Source: an uncultured Bacilli bacterium (GTDB lineage: Bacteria > Bacillota_I > Bacilli_A > RF39 > UBA660). From it: a DNA stretch of 32,000 nt. Positions within the stretch are counted from its first letter, which is position 1. The number at the start of each line of letters is the position of its first letter. Below, one piece after another: positions 6,210 to 21,047 of this stretch. The stretch spans positions 99,050 to 131,049 of the forward strand of contig CAKORR010000004.1 in assembly GCA_934101595.1 (NCBI GenBank). Direction: 5' to 3'. The position numbers were made by a program, and so were the translations under genes. The notes below the pieces were generated by a model that saw nothing but the letters and a program-made list of their open reading frames with translations, did not search any database and was not told where the DNA came from.

Positions 6210-6239
6210 TTGACAAAATGCTCCGGGGGGGGGTATAGT
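6210..6239 (+). promoter_or_regulatory. Promoter of the surface-protein gene, with a homopolymeric G tract in the spacer
   Basis: TTGACA (6210-6215), 18-nt spacer (6216-6233), TATAGT (6234-6239). The last 9 nt of the spacer are all G. RBS AAAGAGG at 6248-6254, ATG at 6264. Confidence 0.5.
6225..6233. repeat. G9 homopolymer (simple sequence repeat)
   Basis: Read directly: ctcc-ggggggggg-tatagt. It stands out in a very AT-rich intergenic region. Confidence 0.95.
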
Positions 6240-6263
6240 TAAAATAGAAAGAGGTAGAGTTAT

Positions 6264-7757
6264 ATGAAACACTTAAAAAAATTGCTAGTACTTATAATGG
6301 CTTTAATATCATTTAGTATAAGTGCAAGTGCTAAGGAAGAATTTACTATCGATACGAAAAAGCTTACTGGTTTATCAGAAAGTAAAGATTACAAGTATTT
6401 AGCAATGGATAATTTTAGAGGATACGTTGAGGATGATATTTATCCTTTAAACAAGTATGTTAAGGATGTTGGCTTTTTGTTTGATGGACCCTTCTATAAT
6501 GATAAAGACTCTGATTATACTTTATATGGTATTGACGAAAATGGCAAAATAACTAAAACATATAAAATTAAAAGTGATTATTTAGGGTCAGAAAAAAAGA
6601 AGTTTGTTGAGCTAAAACGTGGAAATGATTCGTCGATGTGCTACATCCAAAAATGCACTAAGATAGGAGATAATATAACTTGTAAAGTTGATGCTTCATC
6701 ATTATTATTTGATTATGATAAATCAAAAGATCTAAACCAAAATTCTTCTGGAAGTGTGTTGATTGAGGACCCTTTATGGGGACACTATATTAATTATGAA
6801 AAGCAAAAAGGATTATATACTTTTATAGGAACTTTTGATGGAGTTTTAAAGAAAGCTGTATACTCAGAAGATGGTACTTTATTATTAGGACCTGTTAAAG
6901 AAAGTGATTTAAAAATAACTGGCTATGGTGGTGGCAGTTACGCTGTTAAAACCGAAAAAGATAATGACACAATATATAAGTTTGCTTTAAGTAATGGAAC
7001 TAGCGAAGAATTGTCTTTGGCTAAAGTAAAAGAATGGACAAAAGCTGTAACTGTAGAATCTATAACACCATATGTTGCAAGCGAGAACTTAGCTTACTAT
7101 ATAGTTGTTACGGGAAATGGAACATATATTATAACTAAAGATGGAATGGCTAGCCAAAGCACATGGAAGAAAGATATTTTACTAAAGTATAATGGTGAAG
7201 ATATTTATGTATTAGAAGATGACAAAAGATATGATTTTAATCATTCGGAAATAGCAAGTACATTGATAAGAAAAACCAATGATTCCAAATTAAAAGTTTT
7301 GGAAGACGAGAAAGATATAATCGTTAATTATGATGGCAAAGAAGTCTTAAAGAAAAGTAAAAAAGACATGTCTGATAAAGAGTTTTACCTAAGGTATTTA
7401 GGAAATATTGATGATAATCATTATTTTATTTCTATTACCCCAGTCGAAGATGATACTAATTTTGAAACTCGTGAAAATGTTAACGAATCATTCATGTTAG
7501 TTTTAAATAAAAAAACTATTAAAGAAGAAGAGCCAAAAAAGGATGATAATAAACCAATAACTTGTAAAGAGGTTAATGGTATATATTATGATACTAAAGG
7601 AAATAAGGTAAGTAAAAAGGATTATAAGGCCTTATGTGGTGCTGTAAAGCCAGTAGATACTGGTTATGTAGTTCCAGCTTTATCTCTAATGATTCTAGGC
7701 TGTTTATTCCTATTTACTAAGAGACATAAAAAGCTAAATAAAATAGAACATATTTAA
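6264..7757 (+). CDS. Secreted, C-terminally membrane-anchored surface protein of unknown function
   Basis: Signal peptide MKHLKKLLVLIMALISFSISASA. C-terminal hydrophobic segment VVPALSLMILGCLFLF followed by the basic tail TKRHKK. No recognisable catalytic motif. Confidence 0.75.
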   Translation: MKHLKKLLVLIMALISFSISASAKEEFTIDTKKLTGLSESKDYKYLAMDNFRGYVEDDIYPLNKYVKDVGFLFDGPFYNDKDSDYTLYGIDENGKITKTYKIKSDYLGSEKKKFVELKRGNDSSMCYIQKCTKIGDNITCKVDASSLLFDYDKSKDLNQNSSGSVLIEDPLWGHYINYEKQKGLYTFIGTFDGVLKKAVYSEDGTLLLGPVKESDLKITGYGGGSYAVKTEKDNDTIYKFALSNGTSEELSLAKVKEWTKAVTVESITPYVASENLAYYIVVTGNGTYIITKDGMASQSTWKKDILLKYNGEDIYVLEDDKRYDFNHSEIASTLIRKTNDSKLKVLEDEKDIIVNYDGKEVLKKSKKDMSDKEFYLRYLGNIDDNHYFISITPVEDDTNFETRENVNESFMLVLNKKTIKEEEPKKDDNKPITCKEVNGIYYDTKGNKVSKKDYKALCGAVKPVDTGYVVPALSLMILGCLFLFTKRHKKLNKIEHI

Positions 7758-7801: not shown

Positions 7802-9040
7802 ATGAAAAAAATAAAATATTTAATATTTATATTATTAATGGTTGTGGCTAATACTGCGTATGTAAAAGCCTATGAAAAGGATAATAGTGGATGTATTATT
7901 TCTTATGATATGTTTAGGGATAAGCCAGTTTTGATTGATAGTGAAAACTATTACTTTCTTAAATGTAATAAGGACAATCTTCAAGAAAAACTTAATAATA
8001 ATGAGATTATGGTTAGTGATTTAAACTTAGACAAAAATGATTTAACAAAGTTTTCTAAAAAATTATATGATATGATTTATGAAACCCTAGATAATTATTT
8101 TTCACTTTACAGTGGCGATGATGAATTGATTAATGTTTTAAATGTTATGATTAATCCTGGAAAAAGTAATAAAGATTTTTCAGTTGTTATTAATTTTGCA
8201 AATACAAATGATGAGGGATTTACTAGTCCTGATCCTAAATATAGTATAAGCAAAATGCAACTTAATGTTGTGGATGGTGAGTATTTAGAATATGATAAGG
8301 ATAAAACTAGTAATAATAAGTATGCTTATCAAATTCAATATGCTTTTTTTAGAAATATATTAAATCGGGTTACGAATGAATACTTTGAAATTGATAGTAA
8401 TGTTTGCTCTCAAGATTATTCTAATGAAGATAATTCTTATGAAAAAAATGGCTTTTATTTGACAAATGATGATTCTTCGGATCAATATTACTTTAAAATA
8501 AATCTAAATAAAATAACTGTAAATACCACCACAGATATCTATCGTTATTGCAAATATATAAATAATCTTCCTCTTAGTATTGATAGTAAGTCAAAATATA
8601 GTTGTCTTTATTATGAATGCTCTTTCTTTCTAGATAACAAAGAGTTTCATATGGCTTTTGATAAGGATACTAAAGAAATTTATTTAGAAAAAGAAGAAGG
8701 CACATTAGATATTTTTGATTTGACTGATAAAGCTGCTATAAATATGCTTGTAAAAAATTATCAAGAAGTAAATAATTTGCCTGATAGCTTTTATGAGGCA
8801 TATTTGAACGCTTATTCAGCTGGGTTTACTCTTAAGGATAATCATATGGGGTTCAGCGATAATAATAAAATTTTTAAAATTAAAATACTTGATGAAGTTA
8901 TTATTCCTTCTATAAAAAAGGAAGATAATAATATAAATTCAATGTCGGAGGTTATCATAATCGGTGCTTGCGTATTAATTTTATTCACGTCTATACTTTT
9001 TATTTTAAAAAAATCGAAAGAGAATAAGGAGGAAAAATGA
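7802..9040 (+). CDS. Type-I membrane-anchored surface protein, paralog family A (copy 1)
   Basis: Signal peptide (..ANTAYVKA|YEKDNSGC) and a C-terminal TM plus basic tail (VIIIGACVLILFTSILFILKKSK). Shares the motifs KDNSGC, YY(Y)F..C.K(D/N)N, VVDGEYL.Y and FKINLNK with the next gene. Confidence 0.8.
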   Translation: MKKIKYLIFILLMVVANTAYVKAYEKDNSGCIISYDMFRDKPVLIDSENYYFLKCNKDNLQEKLNNNEIMVSDLNLDKNDLTKFSKKLYDMIYETLDNYFSLYSGDDELINVLNVMINPGKSNKDFSVVINFANTNDEGFTSPDPKYSISKMQLNVVDGEYLEYDKDKTSNNKYAYQIQYAFFRNILNRVTNEYFEIDSNVCSQDYSNEDNSYEKNGFYLTNDDSSDQYYFKINLNKITVNTTTDIYRYCKYINNLPLSIDSKSKYSCLYYECSFFLDNKEFHMAFDKDTKEIYLEKEEGTLDIFDLTDKAAINMLVKNYQEVNNLPDSFYEAYLNAYSAGFTLKDNHMGFSDNNKIFKIKILDEVIIPSIKKEDNNINSMSEVIIIGACVLILFTSILFILKKSKENKEEK

Positions 9041-10356
9041 AAAAGAATATTAAATACATAATACTAATATTTTTAATGATGATAGTATTTAATGATCCCG
9101 TTTATGCATCAATTAAAGATAATTCTGGCTGCTATAAAGTTCATCAACTTAATTCCATATTTTCTTCTACAAATTACTATAGAACTAATTTTTACGTCGA
9201 TGATGATTATTACTATTTTGTTTCTTGTGACAAAAACAATAAAATTAAATCATTAGAAGATAAATTAAATGATGGCTCATTATCTATTGATAGTCTAGCA
9301 AAATATAGTATTACTTATATAAAAATTGCGTCAGATACCATGGAAAATGTAAAAAATATACTTGAAAATATCATGATACCAGAAATAGATTCCCATGTTT
9401 ATGGTGATTATAGCCAAATTTTAAGTGGGATTTCCATGACTATGTTTGATGTAGATACTCCAAAAGATTTCTCAATTAAAATTGATTTTGTGCTAGATAA
9501 CCTAAGTAATAGTATTACTTTTAGAGTTGTGGATGGTGAATATCTAAAATACTTAAGTGCGGTCAAAACAAGTAAGAATGCTTCTTTTGTAATAGAAAAA
9601 ATTTATTTAAATATTTTAAATTCTATTGCTTGGAAAAGTGGCTATACTAGTAATGAGGGTGCAGTAGTTTATTCTTTAAAAAATAAAAACAGTTACACTT
9701 ATTCTGCAAATGGTTTTGAGATAGGCTCAGAAGAGTCATTTAAAATAAATTTAAATAAAGTTGATTTTTCAAATAATTTTGGTAGTGAGGAATATCAAGA
9801 AAAAATTAGCTTTTTATACAGATTTATGAGTTATGCTGTTGCTGATTATCGCTCTTTATACAGATTTATGAGTTATGCTGATTATTGCTCTTTGGACGAA
9901 TTAAAATGTCAATTTTATAACGATTTAGGAGATAATATATATACAATTGACTTTAATAATAATAAAATACACGGCTATTCAAATAATTTGGACATAAATA
10001 AAGAAAATGAAAAATTAGTAAGAAATATAATTAATAAATTTGTATATGTATATAGTTTCCGTGATTATAGTTTCCTTGAAGATGGCACAACAAGAAACTT
10101 TATTGATTTTACTACGACAAATTTAAAAGACTATAATTTCAAAAAAAATGGTATTGAGTATAGAGAGGTTGATAAAAATAAAAAAGAAACCTATTCATTT
10201 TATTTTAATTTTAACAATGTCTCTTTAAATATAAGCAATGATGATTATGAGATAAGTAATTTTAATTTAAGAGATATAATTATAATAGGTGTAATTGCAT
10301 CTTGTTTATTAATATCTACTATAATATTAATATTGAAACGTAAGAAAAGCAAATAA
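9037..10356 (+). CDS. Type-I membrane-anchored surface protein, paralog family A (copy 2)
   Basis: ATGA overlap with the previous gene. Signal peptide (..NDPVYA|SIKDNSGC), shared motifs as above, C-terminal TM IIIIGVIASCLLISTIILIL plus KRKKSK. Confidence 0.8.
   Translation: MKKNIKYIILIFLMMIVFNDPVYASIKDNSGCYKVHQLNSIFSSTNYYRTNFYVDDDYYYFVSCDKNNKIKSLEDKLNDGSLSIDSLAKYSITYIKIASDTMENVKNILENIMIPEIDSHVYGDYSQILSGISMTMFDVDTPKDFSIKIDFVLDNLSNSITFRVVDGEYLKYLSAVKTSKNASFVIEKIYLNILNSIAWKSGYTSNEGAVVYSLKNKNSYTYSANGFEIGSEESFKINLNKVDFSNNFGSEEYQEKISFLYRFMSYAVADYRSLYRFMSYADYCSLDELKCQFYNDLGDNIYTIDFNNNKIHGYSNNLDINKENEKLVRNIINKFVYVYSFRDYSFLEDGTTRNFIDFTTTNLKDYNFKKNGIEYREVDKNKKETYSFYFNFNNVSLNISNDDYEISNFNLRDIIIIGVIASCLLISTIILILKRKKSK
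9809..9889 (+). repeat. In-frame tandem duplication (42 nt then about 39 nt) inside the surface-protein gene
   Basis: gctttttatacagatttatgagttatgctgttgctgattatc (9809-9850) is followed by gctctttatacagatttatgagttatgctg---attattgctc (9851-9889). The protein reads SFLYRFMSYAVADYR / SLYRFMSYADYCS. Confidence 0.9.
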
Positions 10357-10362
10357 GAATAT

Positions 10363-10415
10363 AAGCAGGAAAGAGTAGTATTTTAATCAAAATAATACAA
10401 TTTCTTGCTTTTATT
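10363..10415 (+). terminator. Long imperfect hairpin plus U-rich tail; probable terminator of the surface-protein operon
   Basis: aagcaggaaa (10363-10372) pairs with tttcttgctt (10401-10410), 10 bp with one G-U. There is an inner tatttt/aaaata stem, followed by ttatt. Confidence 0.45.
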
Positions 10416-10442
10416 ATGCTCAAAATAAGATATTAAATATAA

Positions 10443-10470
10443 TTGAAAAAAAGAAAATATGTGCTAGAAT
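10443..10470 (+). promoter_or_regulatory. Promoter of ATPase paralog A
   Basis: TTGAAA (10443-10448), 16-nt spacer ending in TGc (extended -10), TAGAAT (10465-10470). GAGGTG RBS at 10478-10483, ATG at 10489. Confidence 0.55.
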
Positions 10471-10488
10471 ATAGCTCGAGGTGTTTTA

Positions 10489-12378
10489 ATGGGGGATCAG
10501 GGATTAACTTTATTGTCTGAAGGACAAATTTGGGGAAATGATAGTGAACCCCAATTAGAAGTAATTAGAAAATATGGCGTAAGAGCTGCATTTACCGATT
10601 TATGTGCTTTAACAGGAGGCCATATGTATGACGATACCTGTTTAAATGTTAATGAAGATAACACTTTAGAAGGAAGAAGCGGTTGGTTTTGGACTAAGAC
10701 TTGCAAGGAAAATTGTGTTTGTGTTGTTGTCAAAAATGGCACCAAAAGCACTAGAAATAGTTATTCGAGTGGTTGCGCAGTTAGGCCAATATTACAATCT
10801 TCCCAAATATTTTCTCGAATTACGCAAAACAGAGTAAGGGGATACAATGGAACAGAAGAAGTAGAATATGGGGAATATCCTCAAAATGTTCCAGACTTCA
10901 AAAAGCAAAATGCACTATGGGCAGAATATAATAGGGGAATGAGTAAAACCGGTAGAAGTTATACATTCAACTCAACAAAGTTTGATGGTAAAAAAACCGA
11001 GATCAATATAGATACATATGCCGAGTATGAATTTCAAGGAAAAAAATATATTCTTGTAAAAGCTAATTTTTATTCTTCTGTTTTTGAATGCGTTTTATCT
11101 AATGGCATCAAATATAAAAAAGATGATTATGTCTGGGTAGAAGTATCACCAGTTAAGTGGCTTATAGATGATAATACAGGAATTTTAATTTCAAAAAAAG
11201 GGCTTGTTTCTGGAGTGACGTTTCTTGATAAAAAGAAACAATATAAAGGAAACTTTAGCAAAACCAAAATGAAAGATTATCTTGATAACTACATGTTTCA
11301 TGATTTAACGCAAAACATATCACCTATTCAAGAAGAAAATTTAGAGGGGCAATTAAAGGAAGAGAAAAACGTCTATAATTTTAATATGAATAAAGTAAGT
11401 GAAGAAGAAATTATAAGAGGAGCAATAGAAAGTGGTGTGGCAGTATTCTTGCATGGACCATCTAGTGAAGGTAAATCAGCAAGGGTAAAACAAATAGATC
11501 CAACTTGTGAAATTATTTATTTAAGAAATGCAACACCGGATAGTTTAAACGGGAAAAGCGTGTATAATGCAAGTACCGGAGAAATGATTGATGTTAAACC
11601 ATCATGGCTTAAAAAACTTGAAGCTAAATGTGAACAAGAGCCAGAAAGACTTCATGTATTATTTTTAGATGAAATAACTAATGCTCTACCTAGTATACAA
11701 GGAATGGCATTTAATATAGTCTTGAATGGAGAAGTAAATGGCATTTGGAAATTGCCAGAAAACGCTAGAATTGTAGCAGCAGGAAATGATATGAAAGATT
11801 CATTAGCTGCAAATCAATTGGCAGAACCATTGTTTAATAGATTTGCACATGTATATATTAAAACAACAACTGAAAGTTGGTTAAAGTGGGCCAGTGAAAA
11901 TAATATACATCCAGCAATTTATTCATATATTGCTTATAAGAATGGAGAAACACTCCGAAGTAAATATGATGGTGAATATCCTAATGCTGATCCGAGAAAG
12001 TGGGAAATGGCTTCTAAAATGCTCTATAAAACCGGGAGGCCAGAAATGTTAAGGGCATTAGTAGGTGAAGATATAACAAGGGAATTTGTACAATTTTATA
12101 ATCAAAGAGTAATAACATTAGATGATGTAATAAATGGAAATTATAATGATAAAGATGTACAGGGATTAAATACCGCTGAAAGATATGCTACAACCATGGG
12201 ATTATCTTGTGTTAGCGAAGAAAATTTAGAAGTAGTAAGGGATTTTGCGAATATACTAGGCAAAGAATTTAAGACAGTTTTTGATTCTTTATGGACACAT
12301 GGCGATGAAAAAAGGTTAGAAAGACTTGCCGAAGCAAAACTTGCTGAAATGCAAAAAGGCGTTTCAAGAAAGCTATGA
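10489..12378 (+). CDS. MoxR-like AAA+ ATPase with a roughly 300-aa variable N-terminal domain (paralog A)
   Basis: Walker A GPSSEGKS (11455-11478), Walker B HVLFLDEITNA (MoxR-like DEIxxA), sensor-1 IVAAGN, LAEPLFNRF (compare MoxR LPEAQLDRF). The N-terminus carries LLSEGQ..RAA.TD....GWFWTKT....AVRPIL and VWVEVSPVKWLID..GIL(I/V)SKKGL, which resembles the DUF6273-type module (from memory). Confidence 0.85.
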   Translation: MGDQGLTLLSEGQIWGNDSEPQLEVIRKYGVRAAFTDLCALTGGHMYDDTCLNVNEDNTLEGRSGWFWTKTCKENCVCVVVKNGTKSTRNSYSSGCAVRPILQSSQIFSRITQNRVRGYNGTEEVEYGEYPQNVPDFKKQNALWAEYNRGMSKTGRSYTFNSTKFDGKKTEINIDTYAEYEFQGKKYILVKANFYSSVFECVLSNGIKYKKDDYVWVEVSPVKWLIDDNTGILISKKGLVSGVTFLDKKKQYKGNFSKTKMKDYLDNYMFHDLTQNISPIQEENLEGQLKEEKNVYNFNMNKVSEEEIIRGAIESGVAVFLHGPSSEGKSARVKQIDPTCEIIYLRNATPDSLNGKSVYNASTGEMIDVKPSWLKKLEAKCEQEPERLHVLFLDEITNALPSIQGMAFNIVLNGEVNGIWKLPENARIVAAGNDMKDSLAANQLAEPLFNRFAHVYIKTTTESWLKWASENNIHPAIYSYIAYKNGETLRSKYDGEYPNADPRKWEMASKMLYKTGRPEMLRALVGEDITREFVQFYNQRVITLDDVINGNYNDKDVQGLNTAERYATTMGLSCVSEENLEVVRDFANILGKEFKTVFDSLWTHGDEKRLERLAEAKLAEMQKGVSRKL

Positions 12379-12479
12379 AAGATAAAAGAGAAATGTTTTT
12401 ATCATATATTAAAGCTAATGTGATTGATAAAATTGATTTGATTTCTAAAAAAAATAAGAATATAAGCAGGAAAGAGTAG
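12375..12479 (+). pseudogene. Truncated, internally deleted remnant of the 130-aa AAA-like gene, left at the duplication junction
   Basis: MKDKREMFLSYIKANV|IDKIDLISKK matches codons 1-16 and about 73-82 of the intact gene at 14476. A 168-nt in-frame deletion (equivalent to 14523-14690) is flanked by gt microhomology. The frame then reads into duplicated intergenic sequence and stops at TAG 12477-12479. Confidence 0.75.
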
Positions 12480-12516
12480 TATTTTAATCAAAATAATACA
12501 ATTTCTTGCTTTTATT
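12464..12516 (+). terminator. Duplicated copy of the 10363-10415 hairpin; would insulate paralog A from paralog B
   Basis: Sequence identical to 10363-10415 at an offset of 2101. Confidence 0.4.
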
Positions 12517-12543
12517 ATGCTCAAAATAAGATATTAAATATAA

Positions 12544-12571
12544 TTGAAAAAAAGAAAATATGTGCTAGAAT
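12544..12571 (+). promoter_or_regulatory. Promoter of ATPase paralog B and downstream genes
   Basis: Identical copy of 10443-10470: TTGAAA, 16 nt, TGcTAGAAT. Confidence 0.55.
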
Positions 12572-12589
12572 ATAGCTCGAGGTGTTTTA

Positions 12590-14479
12590 ATGGGGGATCA
12601 GGGATTAACTTTATTGTCTGAAGGACAAATTTGGGGAAATGATAGTGAACCCCAATTAGAAGTAATAAAAAAATACGGCGTAAGAGCTGCAGTCACGGAT
12701 CTATGTATTTTAACTGGTTGTTTTTTATTTGAAAATACTGAAACTGGTAGAACTGGTTTGTTTTGGACTAAATCTGATGCTGGTGATAGTGATGTCTATT
12801 CAGTTGTTGAGAATGGTTATAAAAGCATCATATGTAGTTTTGCACGCCGTGGTGCAGTTAGGCCAATATTACGATCTTCTGAAATATCTTCTCAAATTAC
12901 ACAAAACAGAGTAAGGGGATACAATGGAACAGAAGAAGTAGAATATGGGGAGTATCCTCAAAATGCTGCGGATTCAAGAATGCAAAATATACTAGAGTTA
13001 GAATATAATAGGGGAATGTATAAAACAGGAAGAAGTTACACATTTAATTCTATGAAATATGATGACTATAGTACAGGATTTAAACCTGTAACTTATGAAG
13101 AATATGAATATCAAGGAAAAAAATATATTCGTATAAAAGCTAACTTTCAAACCCCTGAAAAATATAAACTATCCAATGGTATTGAATACGAAATTGATGA
13201 CTATGTCTGGGTGGAAGTGTCACCAGTTAAGTGGCTTATAGATGAAGATACAGGAATTTTAGTTTCAAAAAAAGGTTTACTTTCTGGTATAAGATTTGAT
13301 GGTACTAATTATAAAGGTGATTTTGATAGAACAGAAATGAAAAAATACCTTGATAACTACATGCTTCGAGATTTATCTCAAATTATAACATATGCTAGTG
13401 TTCAAGATATGGCCCCAGAAGAAAAAGCTCAATTTGAAAAAAAACAAAAAGAAGCTGAAATAAGAAGAAATCCTTATGGTTTTAAATTTGAACAAGTAAG
13501 CGAAGAAGAAATTATAAGAGGAGCAATAGAAAGTGGTGTGGCAGTATTCTTGCATGGACCATCTAGTGAAGGTAAATCAGCAAGAGTAAAACAAATAGAT
13601 CCAACTTGTGAAATAATATACCTTCGTAATGCAACACCAGATAGTTTAAATGGAAAGAGTGTGTATAATAGTGCAACAGGTGAGATGATAGATATTAAAC
13701 CAAGTTGGCTTAAAAAAGTAGAAGAAAAGTGTGAAAATGGACCAGATAGATTTCATGTAGTATTTTTTGATGAAATAACAAATGCATTACCAAGTATTCA
13801 AGGTATAGCATTTAATATAGTTTTAGATAGAGAAGTAAATGGTATTTGGAAACTACCAGAAAACGCTAGAATTGTAGCAGCAGGAAATGATATGAAAGAG
13901 TCATTAGCTGCCAATCAATTGGCAGAACCATTGTTCAATAGATTTGCACATGTATATATTAAAACAACAACTGAAAGTTGGTTAAAGTGGGCCAGTGAAA
14001 ATAATATACATCCAGCAATTTATTCATACATTGCTTATAAGAATGGAAAAACACTACGAAGTAAATATGATGGTGAATATCCAAATGCTGATCCTAGAAA
14101 ATGGGAAATGGCATCTAAAATGCTTTATAAAACCGGTAGTCCAGAAATGTTAAGGGCATTAGTAGGTGAAGATATAACAAGAGAATTTGTAAAATTTTGT
14201 AATCAAAAAGTAATAACATTAGATGATGTAATAAATGGAAATTATAATGATAAGGATATACAGGAATTAAATACCGCTGAAAGATATGCCACAATCATGG
14301 GATTATCTTGTGTTAGCGAAGAAAATTTAGAAGTAGTAAGGGATTTTGCAAATATACTAGGCAAAGAATTTAAAACAATTTTTGATTCTTTATGGACACA
14401 TGGTGATGAAAAAAGGTTAGAAAGACTTGCCGAAGCAAAACTTGCTGAAATGCAAAAAGGAGTTTCAAGAAAGCTATGA
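12590..14479 (+). CDS. MoxR-like AAA+ ATPase with a variable N-terminal domain (paralog B)
   Basis: Same 629-aa architecture as paralog A. Walker A at 13556-13579, VVFFDEITNA, IVAAGN, LAEPLFNRF. The C-terminal half is nearly identical to A at protein level; the N-terminal half is diverged in patches with indels. Confidence 0.85.
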   Translation: MGDQGLTLLSEGQIWGNDSEPQLEVIKKYGVRAAVTDLCILTGCFLFENTETGRTGLFWTKSDAGDSDVYSVVENGYKSIICSFARRGAVRPILRSSEISSQITQNRVRGYNGTEEVEYGEYPQNAADSRMQNILELEYNRGMYKTGRSYTFNSMKYDDYSTGFKPVTYEEYEYQGKKYIRIKANFQTPEKYKLSNGIEYEIDDYVWVEVSPVKWLIDEDTGILVSKKGLLSGIRFDGTNYKGDFDRTEMKKYLDNYMLRDLSQIITYASVQDMAPEEKAQFEKKQKEAEIRRNPYGFKFEQVSEEEIIRGAIESGVAVFLHGPSSEGKSARVKQIDPTCEIIYLRNATPDSLNGKSVYNSATGEMIDIKPSWLKKVEEKCENGPDRFHVVFFDEITNALPSIQGIAFNIVLDREVNGIWKLPENARIVAAGNDMKESLAANQLAEPLFNRFAHVYIKTTTESWLKWASENNIHPAIYSYIAYKNGKTLRSKYDGEYPNADPRKWEMASKMLYKTGSPEMLRALVGEDITREFVKFCNQKVITLDDVINGNYNDKDIQELNTAERYATIMGLSCVSEENLEVVRDFANILGKEFKTIFDSLWTHGDEKRLERLAEAKLAEMQKGVSRKL

Positions 14480-14868
14480 AAGATAAAAGAGAACTGCTTT
14501 TATCATATATTAAAGCTAATGTTGCACCAATATTAGTAGATTTTATATCTGGTGGAGATTTGAATGGTGCAGTTGTAGTACCAGCTAGTGTTGATGTTAA
14601 AGAATTAAATGGTCATTATGATGGAGCGGACTTTATGCCTCCTAAATGGCTTAATGAAATATTAAGTACAAATGCTAGTAAAATATTAGTGATTGATAAA
14701 ATTGATTCGATTTCTAAAAAAGAGCAATTAAAGTTTTGTGAATTGTTAGAGCATCGAAAAATATCTACATTTGAATTACCTGAAAATTGTATAATTATTG
14801 TTACTGCAAATGAAATAAATAAAGATAAAATAAGTGAAGAAATATTTTCGTTAGTTGTGCGAATTTGA
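14476..14868 (+). CDS. 130-aa degenerate AAA-core paralog (pseudo-ATPase: no Walker A Lys, no Walker B Glu, no Arg finger)
   Basis: ATGA overlap with paralog B. It aligns by eye to the ATPase core: APILVDFISGGDLNGA vs VAVFLHGPSSEGKSA; PPKWL vs KPSWL; ILVIDKIDS vs VLFLDEITN; ELPENCIIIVTAN vs KLPENARIVAAGN. Confidence 0.7.
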   Translation: MKDKRELLLSYIKANVAPILVDFISGGDLNGAVVVPASVDVKELNGHYDGADFMPPKWLNEILSTNASKILVIDKIDSISKKEQLKFCELLEHRKISTFELPENCIIIVTANEINKDKISEEIFSLVVRI

Positions 14869-14878
14869 GGTGTATTTT

Positions 14879-16405
14879 ATGAAATATGATATAACAGTAT
14901 TAAAAAGAAAAATGCTTGTTAAATATCCTTTTTTTGGGAGTGTAGTAGCAAGTGTAGATTATAAAGAAAACGAGGATATTCCAACCGCAGGCACAGATGG
15001 AGAAACAATTTACTATAATCCTAAATATTTAGAAAGTTTAAGTGTTGAAGAACAAACTTTTATATTTGCTCATGAAGTATGTCATATTGCATTTAATCAT
15101 ATCTTAAGAAGTGAAGGCAAAGATCCAGAGTTATGGAATATTGCTACAGATGGTGTTATTAATCAGTTTTTAAAACGAGACGGATTAAAAATGACTCTGG
15201 GTGGTGTTGATATGGCAGAAGCTATTAATTACGATGCTGAACAGTTATATGACAAACTATTACAAGAAAAACAACAAAGACAACAACAAAATGGACAAGG
15301 TAATAGTCAAAGCGAACAAGGTAATCATCAACAAAATCAACAACAAAGCAGTGGTAGTAGTCAAGGCGAAAATGGTCAACAACAATCTCAATCACAACAG
15401 CAAACTGGCGATTCACAAAATCAAGAAGACCAGAAACAAGATAGTAAAGCAGGACAAAGTGGAGATGAACAGCAACAATCTCAACAACAAAATAGTTCTA
15501 ATAGTGGAAATTCACAAGAAGAAGATAAATCAAAGCAAGATGTTGGCCATGATACTCACAGTATGTGGGAGAAAGCAGTTAAAAAGCACAAGGAGCAGCA
15601 AGAAAAATCTGATAAAAAAGAGAGCTTATTAGATAAACTTTTAGGAAAAGATACAAAAGAAAAAGAAACAACTGAACTTGAAAAGAAACAGGAAGAACTT
15701 GAAAGTATGGGAGAAAAAGATGCTTTTAAAAAGAATCTTGAAATAAAAAAGAAACAACTGGAAGACTTAAAAGAAGAAATATCTAAAGAAGCTTCGCAGG
15801 CAGGCATATCAACGAATAGAGATATTAGAACAGTTAATGATATAGGTACTGCTAAACCACTAATTGATTGGAGATATATTTTAAAAGAATCTATTATGTA
15901 TGATGTTGATTGGTCATATAAAAATGCTACATTAGAAGATGGAGTTGTTACTGCTAATTTAGAAGAACAACCAATGCCGGAAACTGAAATTGTTCTTGAT
16001 ACAAGTGGCTCAGTAAATGAAGTATTATTAAATAACTTTTTAAGGGAATGTAAGAATATATTACAACATACTAAATTAAAAGTAGGATGTTTTGACACAG
16101 AATTTTATGGATTTCATGAAATTAGAACAGAAGAAGATATAGAAAATATGAGATTTGAAGGTGGTGGAGGAACTGATTTTGATGTTGCTGTAGGTGCTTT
16201 TTCAAGACGAGTTCTAAATAAAATAATTTTTACTGATGGTGAAGCTCCAATGCCAGTTATGTCACTTGATGCAACCTGGATAGTTTTTGGTAGTAATAGA
16301 ATTAATCCATTAGGAGGAAACGTATTTTATATAGATAATGTAACACTCGAAAAATTAAATAACAGTGAAACGACTAGCAAATCAAAAAAAAGAATAAAAA
16401 ACTAA
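14879..16405 (+). CDS. Zn-metallopeptidase-like (HExxH) plus VWA/MIDAS protein, DUF2201-type architecture, with a long Q-rich and K/E-rich linker
   Basis: HEVCH at 15071-15085. VWA MIDAS elements LDTSGS (15998-16012), GGGGTDF and IIFTDGEAP. The start is taken as ATG 14879 (GAGGTG RBS 14867-14872) rather than the ORF-track TTG at 14855. Confidence 0.85.
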   Translation: MKYDITVLKRKMLVKYPFFGSVVASVDYKENEDIPTAGTDGETIYYNPKYLESLSVEEQTFIFAHEVCHIAFNHILRSEGKDPELWNIATDGVINQFLKRDGLKMTLGGVDMAEAINYDAEQLYDKLLQEKQQRQQQNGQGNSQSEQGNHQQNQQQSSGSSQGENGQQQSQSQQQTGDSQNQEDQKQDSKAGQSGDEQQQSQQQNSSNSGNSQEEDKSKQDVGHDTHSMWEKAVKKHKEQQEKSDKKESLLDKLLGKDTKEKETTELEKKQEELESMGEKDAFKKNLEIKKKQLEDLKEEISKEASQAGISTNRDIRTVNDIGTAKPLIDWRYILKESIMYDVDWSYKNATLEDGVVTANLEEQPMPETEIVLDTSGSVNEVLLNNFLRECKNILQHTKLKVGCFDTEFYGFHEIRTEEDIENMRFEGGGGTDFDVAVGAFSRRVLNKIIFTDGEAPMPVMSLDATWIVFGSNRINPLGGNVFYIDNVTLEKLNNSETTSKSKKRIKN

Positions 16406-16440
16406 TGTAATAAAAGGTAGATATCCATCATATACTTATA

Positions 16441-16468
16441 AAAATACTTGTACAAAGTATTTTTTTTT
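16441..16468 (+). terminator. Weak AT-rich hairpin plus T-run after the cassette
   Basis: aaaatactt (16441-16449)-gtaca-aagtatttt (16455-16463) followed by more T. Only one G-C pair, and it overlaps the -35 of the rpsB promoter. Confidence 0.35.
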
Positions 16469-16476
16469 GATAAAAT
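16448..16476 (+). promoter_or_regulatory. rpsB-tsf promoter
   Basis: TTGTAC (16448-16453), 17-nt spacer ending in TGa, TAAAAT (16471-16476). This leaves a leader of about 105 nt before ATG 16589. Confidence 0.5.
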
Positions 16477-16588
16477 AGTCATGGCTTTAAAAAGCAAATA
16501 TACATTAATACGGATTAGAAAGGCGAGTGCCGAAGAGGTGTCTTTTTAAGTTGAAGTATTAAGATGATTAACGAAGGAGGGATTTTTT

Positions 16589-17518
16589 ATGGCCGTAGTT
16601 TCTATGAGTTATTTATTAGAAGCTGGAGTTCATTTTGGACATCAAACTAAAAGATGGAATCCTAAAATGAAAGAATACATTTTTACATCTAGAGATGATA
16701 TTTATATTATCGATCTAGCAAAAACACAAGCTTTAATTGAGGAAGCTTATGAGGAAATTAAAAAGATTGCTTTAAATGGTGGAACATTCTTATTTGTTGG
16801 AACTAAAAAGCAAGCTAGTGAAGCTTCAAAAGAGGAAGCTGAAAGAAGTAATTCTTATTATGTAACTGAAAGATGGTTAGGAGGTACTTTAACAAACTTC
16901 AGAACTATCAGAAAAAGAGTTAAACGTTTAGAAGAAATCGAAACAATGGAAAACGATGGAACGTTTGAGGCACTTCCTAAAAAAGAAGTTATTGGATTAA
17001 AGAAAGAATATGAAAAATTGAATCGTGTTTTATGCGGTATAAGAAACATGACTAAACTTCCAAACGCTTTAATTATAGTTGATCCTAAAAAAGAGATTAA
17101 CGCTATTAGAGAAGCAAGAAAATTAAATATTCCAGTATTTGGAATTGTAGATACAAACTGTGATCCAGATGATGTTGATTTTGTTATTCCAGGAAATGAC
17201 GATGCAGTAAGAGCTGTTAAGGTTGTTTTAGGAGTACTTAATAATGCTATTTGTGAAGCAAATGGACTTGAAATGGTAGATTATGTTACTGAGGAAGACA
17301 AAAAAGACTCAGCAAAAGATGAAAATAAAGAAGAAAAAGTTAAGGAAACTTTGAAAAAGGAAGAAGAAATCGAAATTCCTAAAGAAGTTATTATGCAAGA
17401 AGAAAAAGAAGATTTAACTAATAAAACTTTAGCTGATTTAAAAGCATTAGCAAAAGAAGCTGGTATTAAAGGTTATTCTTCAATGAAAAAAGACGACTTA
17501 ATTAAGGCATTAAGTTAA
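16589..17518 (+). CDS. rpsB: 30S ribosomal protein S2 with a roughly 75-aa acidic C-terminal extension
   Basis: [37 protein letters not shown]. The 309-aa length is due to a K/E-rich tail ending in [29 protein letters not shown]. Confidence 0.95.
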
Positions 17519-18518: not shown

Positions 18519-18531
18519 AATGGAGGTAAAT

Positions 18532-19929
18532 ATGAGTAGTATATTAAAAACAGTAGATGAATATATTAAAAAGTTTAATGCTTTACCATCTAAATATAGT
18601 GAGGTAATTAAATTTTTACATGGCTTAGATGATGTATTAAAAAATTATAGTTATGATGATTTGGCAAGATATATTTTAGATATACTAAATAAATATCCAA
18701 TTATAAAAGAGGCATTAGAAGAAGTAAGAAAGAACAAAGACATTAATAACTTTCGTGGTTTATCATTTACTAATGTAGCTTTGGATGTCACAGATGATAG
18801 TGCGATTGAAAAAAATTATTATACGAGTTCTTCAATTCAACAATATTTTCTTGATATTTCTAAGTATCCTTTACTTACTTTAGAGCAAGAAATCTATTAT
18901 GCCAAACTTAAGAGCAAAGGTGATAAAAAAGCTAGAGAGACTCTAATTACTTCCAATTTGAGATATGTAGCATTTAGAGTTTCAAAATATAATTTTAAAG
19001 AAAACGATATACTTGATTACATTCAAGCTGGGAACATTGGCCTTATGAAAGCCGTTGATAATTATGATTATCGAAAAGGTTTTAGATTAACTACTTATGC
19101 AACAGCATGGATATCCAGAGAAATTCAAGAGTGCAAGACTGGAAAAAATAGAGGAATTCATTTAAGCGTAAGAAATGATAGTCAAATTAGGAGCATGGAA
19201 AAATTAGATGAATTTTTTCAAGAAAAGTTTGGTAGAAATCCTAGAATAGATGAGTATTCAGTTCTTTTAGATTTATCAAAAGATTTTGTAAGAAGTCTTT
19301 ACAATCAAAAAAATGGAGTTAGGAGTCTAAATGACCCAATATCTAGTGATGATAATACCACGGAGTTATTGGATTTTGTAATGGATAATGAAACCAAATC
19401 TGTTGAAGATACAGTTGAAGATAATTTAAATAATAGCATTGTAAGAGAAGCTATTTTAAAAATTGATGTTCCTAAAAAAAGTAAAGATATTATTAGATAC
19501 AGATATGGTTTTGTTGATGGAAAGCCTCATACTTTGGAAGATACAGGAAGAATATATGATGTAACTAGAGAAAGAATTAGGCAAATTGAGAAAAAAACAT
19601 TAAAAAAACTTGGTAATTATTTAAAAAGCTATTATGGATATACAAGCCCTGAAATTGTTAAAAGAACCAAATCTATAAGGGAAGAGGAAAGTGATTTTAT
19701 AAATCCTTTTAGAATGTTTAAAATGTATGATAAAAAAGATGTTATAGAGGCTATTAATATGCTCTCCGACGAAGATAGAGAAATCTTAATGAGTGTTTAC
19801 GATTACAATAGAAATACTATTAATAAGAATAATATTAGTCCAGATTTTATGAAAAATTATTATTTCAATATTCTTGTGAAAATTGGTGATAATTTGCATC
19901 AAGGTATTGTATTAAAGAGGGATAAATAA
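18532..19929 (+). CDS. Sigma-70 family RNA polymerase sigma factor (SigA-like regions 1.2-4.2 with extra N- and C-terminal extensions)
   Basis: IQQYFLDISKYPLLTLEQE (region 1.2), NLRYVAFRVSKY / YIQAGNIGLMKAVDNYDYRKGFRLTTYATAWI (region 2), RYRYGFVDGKPHTLEDTGRIYDVTRERIRQIEKKTLKKL (region 4). Start taken at ATG 18532; the ORF track gives 18520. Confidence 0.8.
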   Translation: MSSILKTVDEYIKKFNALPSKYSEVIKFLHGLDDVLKNYSYDDLARYILDILNKYPIIKEALEEVRKNKDINNFRGLSFTNVALDVTDDSAIEKNYYTSSSIQQYFLDISKYPLLTLEQEIYYAKLKSKGDKKARETLITSNLRYVAFRVSKYNFKENDILDYIQAGNIGLMKAVDNYDYRKGFRLTTYATAWISREIQECKTGKNRGIHLSVRNDSQIRSMEKLDEFFQEKFGRNPRIDEYSVLLDLSKDFVRSLYNQKNGVRSLNDPISSDDNTTELLDFVMDNETKSVEDTVEDNLNNSIVREAILKIDVPKKSKDIIRYRYGFVDGKPHTLEDTGRIYDVTRERIRQIEKKTLKKLGNYLKSYYGYTSPEIVKRTKSIREEESDFINPFRMFKMYDKKDVIEAINMLSDEDREILMSVYDYNRNTINKNNISPDFMKNYYFNILVKIGDNLHQGIVLKRDK

Positions 19930-21047
19930 TGGAATTTTTTAGTAAACTAAATGAAGAACTAAGTGAAATAGTATTTAATAATGATATAGTTAGTTATCTT
20001 TCTTTGCTTGAGGAAGTTTTAAGCAATAATACTTTTGTTAATGAGTGTGATTATTTTGCTGTAATTAACGAATCAACAATTTTAAGAGATAAATTAAAAG
20101 AACTCGAAGAGTATTTAGCTCATTTTGAAAATTGTAAATTAACCATGTTAAAATTCCCTGTACTAAATGAATTATACGATACTTATCTTTTTATGTTTTC
20201 TAATGATAATCAGGATGCTTATGATGTATATAGTGTGGATGCCACTGAACAGTACTTAAAATTAATTAGAAAATATAGACTTCTTACTGCTGAAGAAGAG
20301 TATGAATTATCAAAAAAAATAGCCATGGGTGATAAAGAAGCCAGAGAAAAGTTAATAAATCATAATTTGCGACTTGTTGTAAAAATTGCTTTTCGTTTTA
20401 GAAATCACGGAAGAGATATTAGTGATTTAATCCAAGATGGTAATCTAGGACTTATAAAAGCTGCAAAATTATATGATTATACTTCCGGATGTCGTTTTTC
20501 AACCTATGCTTATAGGCAAATTTTTGCAAAAATAAGAAGAGAAATAGATAATAATAAAAATGCCATAAGAAAACCAATTTGGGCATCAGATTTGTGGAAG
20601 AAAGCCGAGGATGTTAAACGTGACTATTATGGTGAGCATCAAAAAAACTTAAGTTTAGAAGAAGTTGCTAAAATACTTAATGTTAGAGAAAGTACATTAC
20701 AATATGCATATTTAGATAATAGAAGAGTTCATATTACGGCTAAAAAAAGCGATGGCGATTTAATTGATAGTGATCCTTTATTAAATATTGCTGATCAAGG
20801 TAGTCTCTTAGAAGATAAGGTCGAACTCAAAATATTATTGGAGGAAATAAAAAATTATTTAATAATGAGCAATTTTAGTGAGAGAGATATTGATATTTAT
20901 TTTTCTTGCTTGTATGATGCGAAAAGAAAAGATTTATCAGAAAAATATGGTATAACTAGCGAAAGAGTTAGCCAAATAGATAGAAGAGTTAGCAAAAATG
21001 TTTGTATGTATTTAAAAAAAGAGCCAAAGAAGCGTTATTCAATTTGA
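19929..21047 (+). CDS. Second sigma-70 family sigma factor, translationally coupled to the first
   Basis: TAATG overlap. YLKLIRKYRLLTAEEEYELSKKIAMGDKEAREKLINHNLRLVVKIA, DLIQDGNLGLIKAAKLYDY..GCRFSTYA, region 4.2 YGITSERVSQIDRR. The conserved aromatic pair after STYA is absent (YAYRQIFAKI). Confidence 0.8.
   Translation: MEFFSKLNEELSEIVFNNDIVSYLSLLEEVLSNNTFVNECDYFAVINESTILRDKLKELEEYLAHFENCKLTMLKFPVLNELYDTYLFMFSNDNQDAYDVYSVDATEQYLKLIRKYRLLTAEEEYELSKKIAMGDKEAREKLINHNLRLVVKIAFRFRNHGRDISDLIQDGNLGLIKAAKLYDYTSGCRFSTYAYRQIFAKIRREIDNNKNAIRKPIWASDLWKKAEDVKRDYYGEHQKNLSLEEVAKILNVRESTLQYAYLDNRRVHITAKKSDGDLIDSDPLLNIADQGSLLEDKVELKILLEEIKNYLIMSNFSERDIDIYFSCLYDAKRKDLSEKYGITSERVSQIDRRVSKNVCMYLKKEPKKRYSI

Follow-up and report, generated by a model that had tools for sequence, protein, structure and literature searches.

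Tandem paralogs exchange segments, as in the conversion between tufA and tufB or the cassette recombination between pilE and pilS in Neisseria. Among larger systems, a diversity-generating retroelement (DGR) is coupled to MoxR and vWA proteins in the "VMAP-ternary" conflict systems of cyanobacteria and gammaproteobacteria (Kaur et al., 2020, PMC7159879; Dore et al., 2024, PMC10907252), where the variable CLec/FGS domain is C-terminal, being fused either to the vWA protein or to a separate target. Tentaclins are phage receptor-binding proteins with an N-terminal variable domain of the C-type-lectin-like DUF6273 family (PMC10743442). Finally, MoxR AAA+ ATPases and VWA proteins form chaperone pairs, such as NorQ/NorD, CbbQ/CbbO, and RavA/ViaA (PMC9976466, PMC13036017). 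Here, we analyze a 32,000-nt stretch of DNA (the window) from an uncultured Bacilli bacterium of the RF39 lineage (assembly GCA_934101595.1, contig CAKORR010000004.1, positions 99,050 to 131,049 of the forward strand). It carries a three-gene operon encoding an ATPase (a sensor-like domain at the N-terminus joined to a MoxR-like AAA+ module), a degenerate AAA fragment of 130 aa, and a metallopeptidase-vWA protein, and the ATPase gene is present in two tandem copies, paralogs A and B.

We find that the head of this operon is a genuine chromosomal tandem segmental duplication, that the segment was duplicated in situ, with two breakpoints at short microhomologies, and that the copies did not merely diverge, as segments of A and B carry conflicting histories. 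The best explanation, to which we assign a probability of about 0.72, is an in situ segmental duplication followed by replacement of domain cassettes through recombination between paralogs, leaving two fixed sensors in a family of DGR targets. The locus is considered chromosomal because it is preceded by murB, an ftsQ-like gene, and queH and followed by rpsB, tsf, sigma factor genes, and frr. The genes and motifs of the locus are as follows.

9037..10356, forward strand: upstream 439-aa gene; no family match, hydrophobic C-terminal stretch, last 6 nt within the repeat unit
10489..12378, forward strand: paralog A, 629 aa; divergent N-terminal domain, then the MoxR-like AAA+ module
11455-11478, forward strand: Walker A motif of paralog A, GPSSEGKS
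11668-11685, forward strand: Walker B motif of paralog A, DEITNA
12590..14479, forward strand: paralog B, 629 aa; N-terminal domain near the family consensus, translationally coupled to the small gene
14476..14868, forward strand: small 130-aa gene; weak match to the AAA region from Walker B to sensor 1, without Walker A
14879..16405, forward strand: VWA-peptidase gene, 508 aa counted from the ATG (508/516 aa); SprT-like metallopeptidase domain (DUF2201_N) fused to a VWA-like domain (DUF2201)
15265-15505, forward strand: Q/N/S-rich low-complexity linker of the VWA-peptidase

Similar to the VMAP-ternary systems, relatives of this locus encode a MoxR-like AAA+ ATPase and a vWA-peptidase, with a DGR hypermutating the ligand-binding domain of one component. 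However, it is the ATPase itself that carries the variable region in the relatives, close to its N-terminus (aa ~75-103); the vWA domain (DUF2201) is fused to a peptidase of the SprT-like metallopeptidase type (DUF2201_N), and the third component is the 130-aa degenerate AAA fragment rather than a VMAP protein. No operon protein has a Pfam match to the VMAP family, and because this component is absent, we place the family outside the VMAP-ternary class. The hosts, too, are small-genome uncultured gut Bacilli and not multicellular cyanobacteria or gammaproteobacteria, and the window locus itself has no DGR. With tentaclins, the family shares a variable region in the N-terminal domain, all DUF6273 matches here being below threshold, but the window proteins are cytoplasmic-looking chromosomal ATPase fusions and not phage tail proteins. 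As in the MoxR/VWA chaperone pairs, an AAA+ ATPase with Walker A and B motifs adjoins a VWA gene, and the best Foldseek matches in PDB include NorQ, McrB, and CbbQ. Unlike in these pairs, the window ATPase is extended by a 300-aa N-terminal domain and partnered by a protein with a metallopeptidase domain, no gene for a metalloenzyme client is found near the window operon, and Pfam AAA-type matches are below cut-offs. The resemblance to tufA/tufB and pilE/pilS consists in the homogenized or swapped paralog segments, yielding mosaic identity and haplotype blocks common to both paralogs; by contrast, neither dedicated recombination machinery nor silent cassettes or programmed switching are evident here, and both ATPase copies are full-length, each with its own promoter-like site.

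The duplicated unit is delimited by direct repeats with a constant offset of 2101 nt, which a repeat finder detects at its left end (10346-10637/12447-12738) and its right end (11374-11673/13475-13774); in the middle of the unit, the offset is 2077, 2074, and 2068, owing to indels. The repeated spans are 10351 to about 12452 and 12452 to about 14553. The left arm of the unit comprises the final 6 nt of the 439-aa gene, a hairpin, a promoter-like site, the ribosome-binding site GAGGTG, and the first 77 coding nucleotides of the ATPase gene. Between the two ATPase genes lies a remnant of the 130-aa gene, marked in the repeat search by a separate 33-nt repeat at an offset of 2269 (12420-12452 versus 14689-14721).

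10351..10565, forward strand: left repeat arm, copy 1; 215 nt, 100% identical to 12452-12666
12452..12666, forward strand: left repeat arm, copy 2; second hairpin copy at 12459-12516, second promoter-like site at 12544-12571
10358..10415, forward strand: AU-rich terminator-like hairpin, copy 1, followed by the U-tract UUUUAUUAU
10443..10470, forward strand: promoter-like site TTGAAA-16-TGnTAGAAT, copy 1; best site on the forward strand, copy 2 at 12544-12571
12375..12452, forward strand: remnant of the 130-aa gene, 78 nt; nt 1-47 joined directly to nt 216-246
12447..12454, forward strand: A8 run containing the junction between the remnant and the repeat unit; A6 and A3 in the parental sequences
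14523..14690, forward strand: piece of the small gene absent from the remnant; 168 nt, in frame, GT at both flanks

The first part of the remnant, immediately after the stop codon of A (12375-12421, ATGAAAGATAAAAGAGAAATGTTTTTATCATATATTAAAGCTAATGT), matches nt 1-47 of the 130-aa gene except at 2 positions, and the second part (12422-12452, GATTGATAAAATTGATTTGATTTCTAAAAAA) matches its nt 216-246 (14691-14721) except at 1; past it, AATAAGAATATAAGCAGG... takes up the 3' end of the upstream gene and then the intergenic region. The remnant opens a 34-codon open reading frame (ORF), whose ATG overlaps the stop codon of paralog A (ATGA). Paralog A, proposed in the original prediction to be an insulated monocistronic unit, still has this short ORF behind it. 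Among the loci compared, a small-gene remnant between ATPase copies is present in the window lineage only. The hairpin at 10358-10415 has a predicted RNA folding energy of -18.5 kcal/mol (z -4.5), with 0/200 shuffled sequences folding equally well, and is terminator-like by folding alone, since a terminator scan over 10200-16700 called none.

Repeat finding and alignment thus agree with the original prediction, which had described the 2101-nt repeat starting at 10351/12452, found here at both unit ends, its identity through the hairpin, promoter, ribosome-binding site, and about 77 coding nucleotides (0/215 mismatches over 10351-10565), a remnant made of 47 nt plus nt 216-246 with a 168-nt in-frame deletion at gt microhomology (3/78 mismatches), and a junction inside the A-run at 12447-12454 (A8 against parental A6 and A3). 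It had also claimed a duplicated terminator; here, the hairpin with its U-tract is indeed duplicated, but the terminator scan made no call there.

The divergence between the copies is highly uneven along the unit. The counts of nucleotide mismatches between A and B, in coordinates of copy 1, are given below, together with that for the scar; between 10600 and 11400, identity is 50-90% with indels.

10351-10565: 0/215
10567-10637: 19/71
11413-11512: 1/100
11513-11720: 46/208
11721-12374: 34/654
Scar versus small gene: 3/78

The same mosaic appears at four-fold degenerate sites, compared in codons whose amino acid is conserved and numbered by residues of A.

aa 1-26: A versus B 0/8
aa 27-308: A versus B 24/59 (0.41); B versus the other-species orthologue L003 0.36
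aa 309-342: A versus B 0/15
aa 343-410: A versus B 8/16
aa 411-629: A versus B 13/72 (0.18); B versus L003 0.48

As 24/59 four-fold sites differ in the N-terminal domains compared with 3/78 mismatches in the scar, these domains are far older than the scar. On this measure, the N-terminal domains of A and B are as old as species splits, and the scar and the ends of the unit are young. Both genes are intact, and the ratio of non-synonymous to synonymous substitution rates (dN/dS) in the N-terminal domain is 0.3-0.4; therefore, both copies are under purifying selection. The N-terminal domain of B is 82-92% identical per block to the family consensus, and that of A is far from all sampled domains, the nearest, in a full-length search and local BLAST, being that of paralog D at a second locus (68% amino acid identity). 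A domain-only search with the N-terminal domain of A missed full-length proteins and returned only proteins of 160-470 aa, with at most 66% identity; some of these may be contig-end fragments. Many of the gut-metagenome proteins P0121-P0240 match the N-terminal domain, at 37-66% to that of A, while carrying little or none of the ATPase half.

The second locus, which may lie in the same genome as the window, also carries two ATPase paralogs. In L085 (GCA_902493015.1, 3633-9890), the gene order is ileS, paralog C (633 aa), small gene, VWA-peptidase, and paralog D (629 aa). C and D share 100% identity across aa 316-585 and show no synonymous difference (0/204) within aa 411-629, but their N-terminal domains are 67-90% identical and the duplicated upstream regions only 87-94%, which marks concerted evolution of the ATPase half. 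By their N-terminal domains, B and C are consensus-like and A and D divergent; A and D group together in a neighbour-joining tree, although 0.46 of their four-fold sites differ. In strain L002, locus 2 (8001-9905) consists of a single C/D fusion gene, with the small gene and the VWA gene lost. This second locus downstream of ileS is also represented by L008.

Exchange between paralogs is seen in one segment of paralog B.

13616..13819, forward strand: patch of paralog B, aa 343-410; near-identical to the locus-2 paralogs, unlike A and the B of strain L001

This patch differs from the locus-2 paralog P2 by 2/64 synonymous codons. In strain L001, represented by a contig from a Hadza sample that shares layout and scar with the window and is 98% identical to it across 8 kb, aa 343-410 of B equal those of A. 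The patch is read as a recent conversion tract. Moreover, nearly all amino acid variation among five A and six B alleles falls into aa 361-414 (11569-11730 in A and 13670-13831 in B of the window), where it forms two haplotype blocks, each present in both paralogs. These patterns indicate that gene conversion between paralogs is active in this ATPase family. Separately, the short contig L094 (1-1502) links an A-like 3' half (98.7% identity with 11295-12421) with a small gene that is intact, and represents either a further recombinant allele or an assembly chimera.

To place the locus in its family, we scanned one genome per species, yielding 76 loci. The relatives are metagenome-assembled genomes of uncultured gut Bacilli, with titles including "uncultured Bacilli/Tenericutes bacterium," Clostridium sp. 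CAG:417, Coprobacillus sp. CAG:605, and Candidatus Faecisoma, and in other species the module resides in genomic contexts other than that of the window. The commonest layout is ATPase, small gene, and VWA-peptidase, with one ATPase copy in about 60/76 loci. At least 13 loci (L023, L028, L036, L038, L045, L047, L051, L052, L055, L061, L068, L073, and L082) carry additional ATPase copies before or after the module, as does the separately found L085. At least five copies are present in L028, each with its own variable region but a conserved GC-rich flank, and L073 (6001-9783) has two identical copies. In a more distant Clostridia-type subgroup (L063-L080, e.g., Zhenpiania hominis L066 and Lentihominibacter L064), the ATPase gene is directly followed by the VWA-peptidase gene, without the 130-aa gene.

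In 12 loci (L011, L018, L027, L029, L031-L034, L038, L044, L058, and L081), an intact DGR cassette lies directly upstream of the ATPase gene and comprises a 166-aa Avd-like ORF, a template repeat (TR), and a 338-aa reverse transcriptase (RT). Coordinates are given for L027.

L027, 3946-4443: Avd-like ORF
L027, 4627-4706: TR
L027, 4907-5920: RT
L027, from 6001: target gene

The TR is 80-100 nt long and matches the variable region (VR) at nt ~178-311 of the ATPase gene, mostly 225-310 (aa ~75-103, ending GAVRPAL); this position near the N-terminus is unusual. Mismatches between TR and VR fall at TR adenines in 12/12 cases in L011, 10/10 in L018, 14/14 in L027, 10/10 in L031, 10/10 in L081, 11/12 in L033, 11/12 in L058, and 9/11 in L029, while the adenine content of the TR is about 33% in most of these loci and 28% in L029 and L031. 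L044 likewise has a TR/VR pair with template-adenine mismatches next to the RT. Since mismatches that fall all or nearly all at template adenines are the defining signature of DGRs, this pattern identifies the N-terminal domain of the relatives' ATPase as a DGR target. DGR RTs have a [LIV]GxxxSQ motif and are accompanied by the accessory protein Avd. The L027 RT contains LALGNQSSQ and matches general RT models, and the 166-aa ORF matches DivGenRetAVD weakly (E 0.0029, 17.9 bits, cut-off 80).

ATPase copies without a local DGR mostly retain the GC-rich flank of the variable region, GCTGTTCGCCCAGCTTTG. Locus L038 (9637-13873) combines a DGR with three further ATPase copies; when DGR status was compared with ATPase copy number, 9/12 multi-copy loci were scored "unknown," their upstream sequence being too short. 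Decayed DGRs, with an internal deletion in the RT or RT fragments only, were seen in L003-L007, L009, L015, L020, L021, L024, L035, L039, and L049; eight of these RT-fragment loci come from the 76-locus scan, and L003-L007 had been found earlier. The mismatches between TR and VR in L003 (6210-7937) are no longer adenine-specific (12/19).

Both window paralogs retain a stretch homologous to this variable region.

10714..10794, forward strand: former variable region of paralog A, homologous to the relatives' DGR variable region; GC-rich flanks lost
12791..12871, forward strand: former variable region of paralog B, homologous to the relatives' DGR variable region

Blastn of both stretches against all 32 kb gave chance matches only, that is, no TR, and no RT domain was found in the 10 window ORFs scanned against Pfam. 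The flank has changed from the family GCTGTTCGCCCAGCTTTG to GCAGTTAGGCCAATATTA in the window, the GC content there is 0.37-0.39 versus 0.47-0.53 in the family, and the variable-region peptide is invariant across the five A and six B alleles. Thus the window lineage appears to have no DGR at this locus, and its variable regions appear to be frozen.

The history that we favour would have proceeded as follows. An illegitimate join within the A-run would have connected the small gene, at its nt 246, with the 3' end of the 439-aa gene, duplicating the hairpin, promoter, ribosome-binding site, and ATPase gene; this initial duplication would have been about 2.27 kb (2101 + 168), or larger and trimmed later. 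The small-gene remnant would then have been shortened by a 168-nt slippage deletion at the GT microhomology. Subsequently, the N-terminal cassette of one copy (aa 27-308) would have been swapped by homologous recombination for that of a divergent family member, and, more recently, a patch of ~200 nt (aa 343-410) of copy B replaced, the donors being paralogs at the second locus or other strains, while the AAA+/C-terminal half, the promoter, and the 5' end would have remained near-identical between the copies. The outcome would be two fixed sensor variants, A and B, probably with one common small-protein/vWA-peptidase partner, with conversion keeping the presumed partner-binding ATPase half uniform.

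Could the layout be an assembly artefact, with a short-read repeat mis-joined or expanded and a single real ATPase gene at the locus? Assemblers do break in the 215-nt repeat: contigs of L086 and L089, from one sample, end within it, as k = 141 predicts, and L088 has an N gap. Moreover, in L091, assembled at a coverage of 2.7, the 439-aa gene leads through the repeat directly into B. This contig may represent a genuine allele, ancestral or produced by deletion, or else a shortcut taken by the assembler in the repeat, and such a shortcut explains it as well as a RecA-type deletion allele does; the C/D fusion in L002 is a recombinational deletion between direct repeats, and a like event could yield an allele of the L091 type. 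Against an artefact, A and B differ by 20-50% mid-gene over about 1 kb, so both sequences must exist, and collapse or expansion of one copy is ruled out. The original prediction had proposed a comparison with related assemblies, and it recovers the duplicated allele: the 21-nt deletion junction and the 35-nt duplication junction are exact in metagenome assemblies of five other samples, produced by SPAdes or MEGAHIT (L001, L086, L087, L092, and L097). Further, A and B alleles occur together on long contigs (154, 204, and 118 kb) in at least four strain variants. We therefore regard the chance of an artefact as practically negligible. It is also very improbable that a DGR acting in trans rewrote both variable regions independently after the duplication and thereby produced the differences between A and B. 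The orthologues are active DGR targets, and the least similar stretch of the paralogs (aa 30-106, 44-47% identity) does contain the variable-region homologue. Yet the differences in this 81-nt homologue are not enriched at template-adenine positions (11/28 vs 16/53, p = 0.46), the divergence includes indels and extends over about 850 nt, well past a variable region, and the window has neither a TR nor, in the 10 ORFs scanned, an RT, alongside a decayed flank and variable regions that do not vary in the population.

The main rival, though one we still consider rather unlikely, is that the duplication, of the ATPase gene or of a whole module of ATPase, small gene, and VWA gene, is about as old as the divergence of the N-terminal domains and that the copies have since evolved in concert, conversion homogenizing the ends and selection keeping the N-terminal domains apart; the A-run join and the 168-nt gap would then be later deletions that removed the first-copy small gene and VWA gene. 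Locus 2 shows such a pattern, as C and D flank the small and VWA genes, with upstream regions at 87-94% and C-terminal halves at 100% identity, and each locus has one consensus-like (B, C) and one divergent (A, D) N-terminal domain, the divergent ones grouping together. On the other hand, the non-coding remnant retains 96% identity with the small gene and includes 31 nt isolated between two breakpoints; conversion is unlikely to have maintained such an island. The ancient duplication also requires more events (two conversion tracts and two deletions), and the A/D four-fold divergence of 0.46 means that any shared "type II" ancestry would itself be very old. Several observations nevertheless weigh against the in situ duplication with cassette replacement. 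Conversion patches segregate in the population, conversion being demonstrably active in the family, as an ancient duplication would have it. We found no donor for the N-terminal domain of A: beyond D (68%), all others are at 57-60%. The sequence is compatible with either order of duplication and deletion, and the A-run join, taken above as the duplication junction, could equally be a later deletion junction of a larger, whole-module duplication; locus 2 (L085) has the layout that this needs. The promoter, the terminator, and the shared-partner function are predictions from sequence, and the full-length AlphaFold model is of low confidence in its AAA+ part, with a predicted local distance difference test (pLDDT) score below 50 over much of aa 396-516. 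Accordingly, of the claim in the original prediction that a single-ATPase ancestor underwent duplication and deletion, the tandem duplication stands, and the single-copy layout is the commonest in the relatives (about 60/76), whereas a simple recent duplication of ~2.27 kb does not suffice, as the copies are mosaic (24/59 four-fold differences in aa 27-308) and the junction may equally derive from a deletion. That prediction had covered neither the DGR targeting of the family nor the additional ATPase copies in relatives.

The protein products were characterized by domain and structure searches. In the last protein of the operon, Pfam identifies DUF2201_N, a putative SprT-like metallopeptidase (E 1.2e-35), and the VWA-like DUF2201 (E 9.7e-12). 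Both A and B carry the Walker A motif GPSSEGKS and a Walker B of the hhhhDE type (FLDEIT/FFDEIT), with Pfam AAA-type matches below the curated cut-offs (Sigma54_activat, 17.1 bits, cut-off 20.2). For the low-confidence model of the AAA+ part, the top Foldseek matches in PDB are NorQ (MoxR), MCM, McrB, and CbbQ, with E about 1e-5. The 130-aa protein aligns weakly to the region of the ATPase from Walker B to sensor 1 (E 0.007) and to Pfam AAA (19.1 bits, cut-off 21.2) and lacks Walker A; the designation "pseudo-ATPase" is plausible but weakly supported by these matches. The operon proteins had no match in NCBIfam or in a PDB sequence search, and the window had none in Rfam. PADLOC gave no meaningful match for any operon protein, the small protein reaching only 16.6 bits with Csn2.

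The N-terminal domain was modelled separately (265 residues; pLDDT 93.7, predicted TM-score 0.91), and its fold has no significant neighbour in PDB (best E 0.06) or BFVD. DUF6273 scores 16.5 bits in A (cut-off 23.5), and nothing is detected in B; a DUF6273 protein is the third, marginal match in the BFVD fold search (E 0.056, probability 0.57), and the homologue P0207 has a precomputed PF19789 match.

Some features of the neighbouring genes and of the VWA-peptidase may be mentioned. The VWA-peptidase varies from 508 to 577 aa across strains, and in L085 its linker (6228-6839) is a 102-nt tandem repeat of five units. The adjacent 412- and 439-aa genes upstream of the operon (7802-10356) are paralogs with 28% identity and without matches in Pfam, NCBIfam, or PADLOC; the latter gene contains a near-perfect 30-nt repeat (9809-9838 and 9851-9880). 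Downstream, ribosomal protein S2 (16589-17518) carries a C-terminal Rho_N domain (residues 275-307, E 5e-12), and two tandem sigma-70 family genes occupy 18520-21047, their stop and start codons overlapping at 19929.

Taken alone, the duplication scar is ordinary genome dynamics, well documented at this locus, and the interest lies mainly in the DGR-linked family context and in the visible exchange of cassettes, less in the scar. Among the papers searched, none ties DUF2201 or these gut Bacilli to a DGR. Tentatively, the family may represent an undescribed class of DGR-linked intracellular sensors, widespread among uncultured gut Bacilli, in which a MoxR-like ATPase with a hypervariable ligand-binding domain at its N-terminus would signal to a vWA-metallopeptidase through a degenerate AAA adaptor, and in which lineages that lost the DGR, among them that of the window, would instead keep their diversity as a small germline repertoire of tandemly duplicated, conversion-shuffled N-terminal cassettes, with the ATPase half, which would bind the partner, kept uniform by conversion.

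The scar is a clean, population-verified case of an operon gaining an extra, separately promoted gene copy, and the locus shows paralogs exchanging domain-sized segments after duplication. The family ties a DGR to the ATPase component of a MoxR/vWA-peptidase module in gut Bacilli with small genomes, outside the multicellular bacteria from which DGR-coupled conflict systems of this sort were described. Its members offer natural contrasts, with active DGRs, decayed DGRs, DGR-less loci with duplicates, and multi-copy arrays, which could reveal what the variable domain senses and whether duplication and conversion can replace targeted hypermutation.

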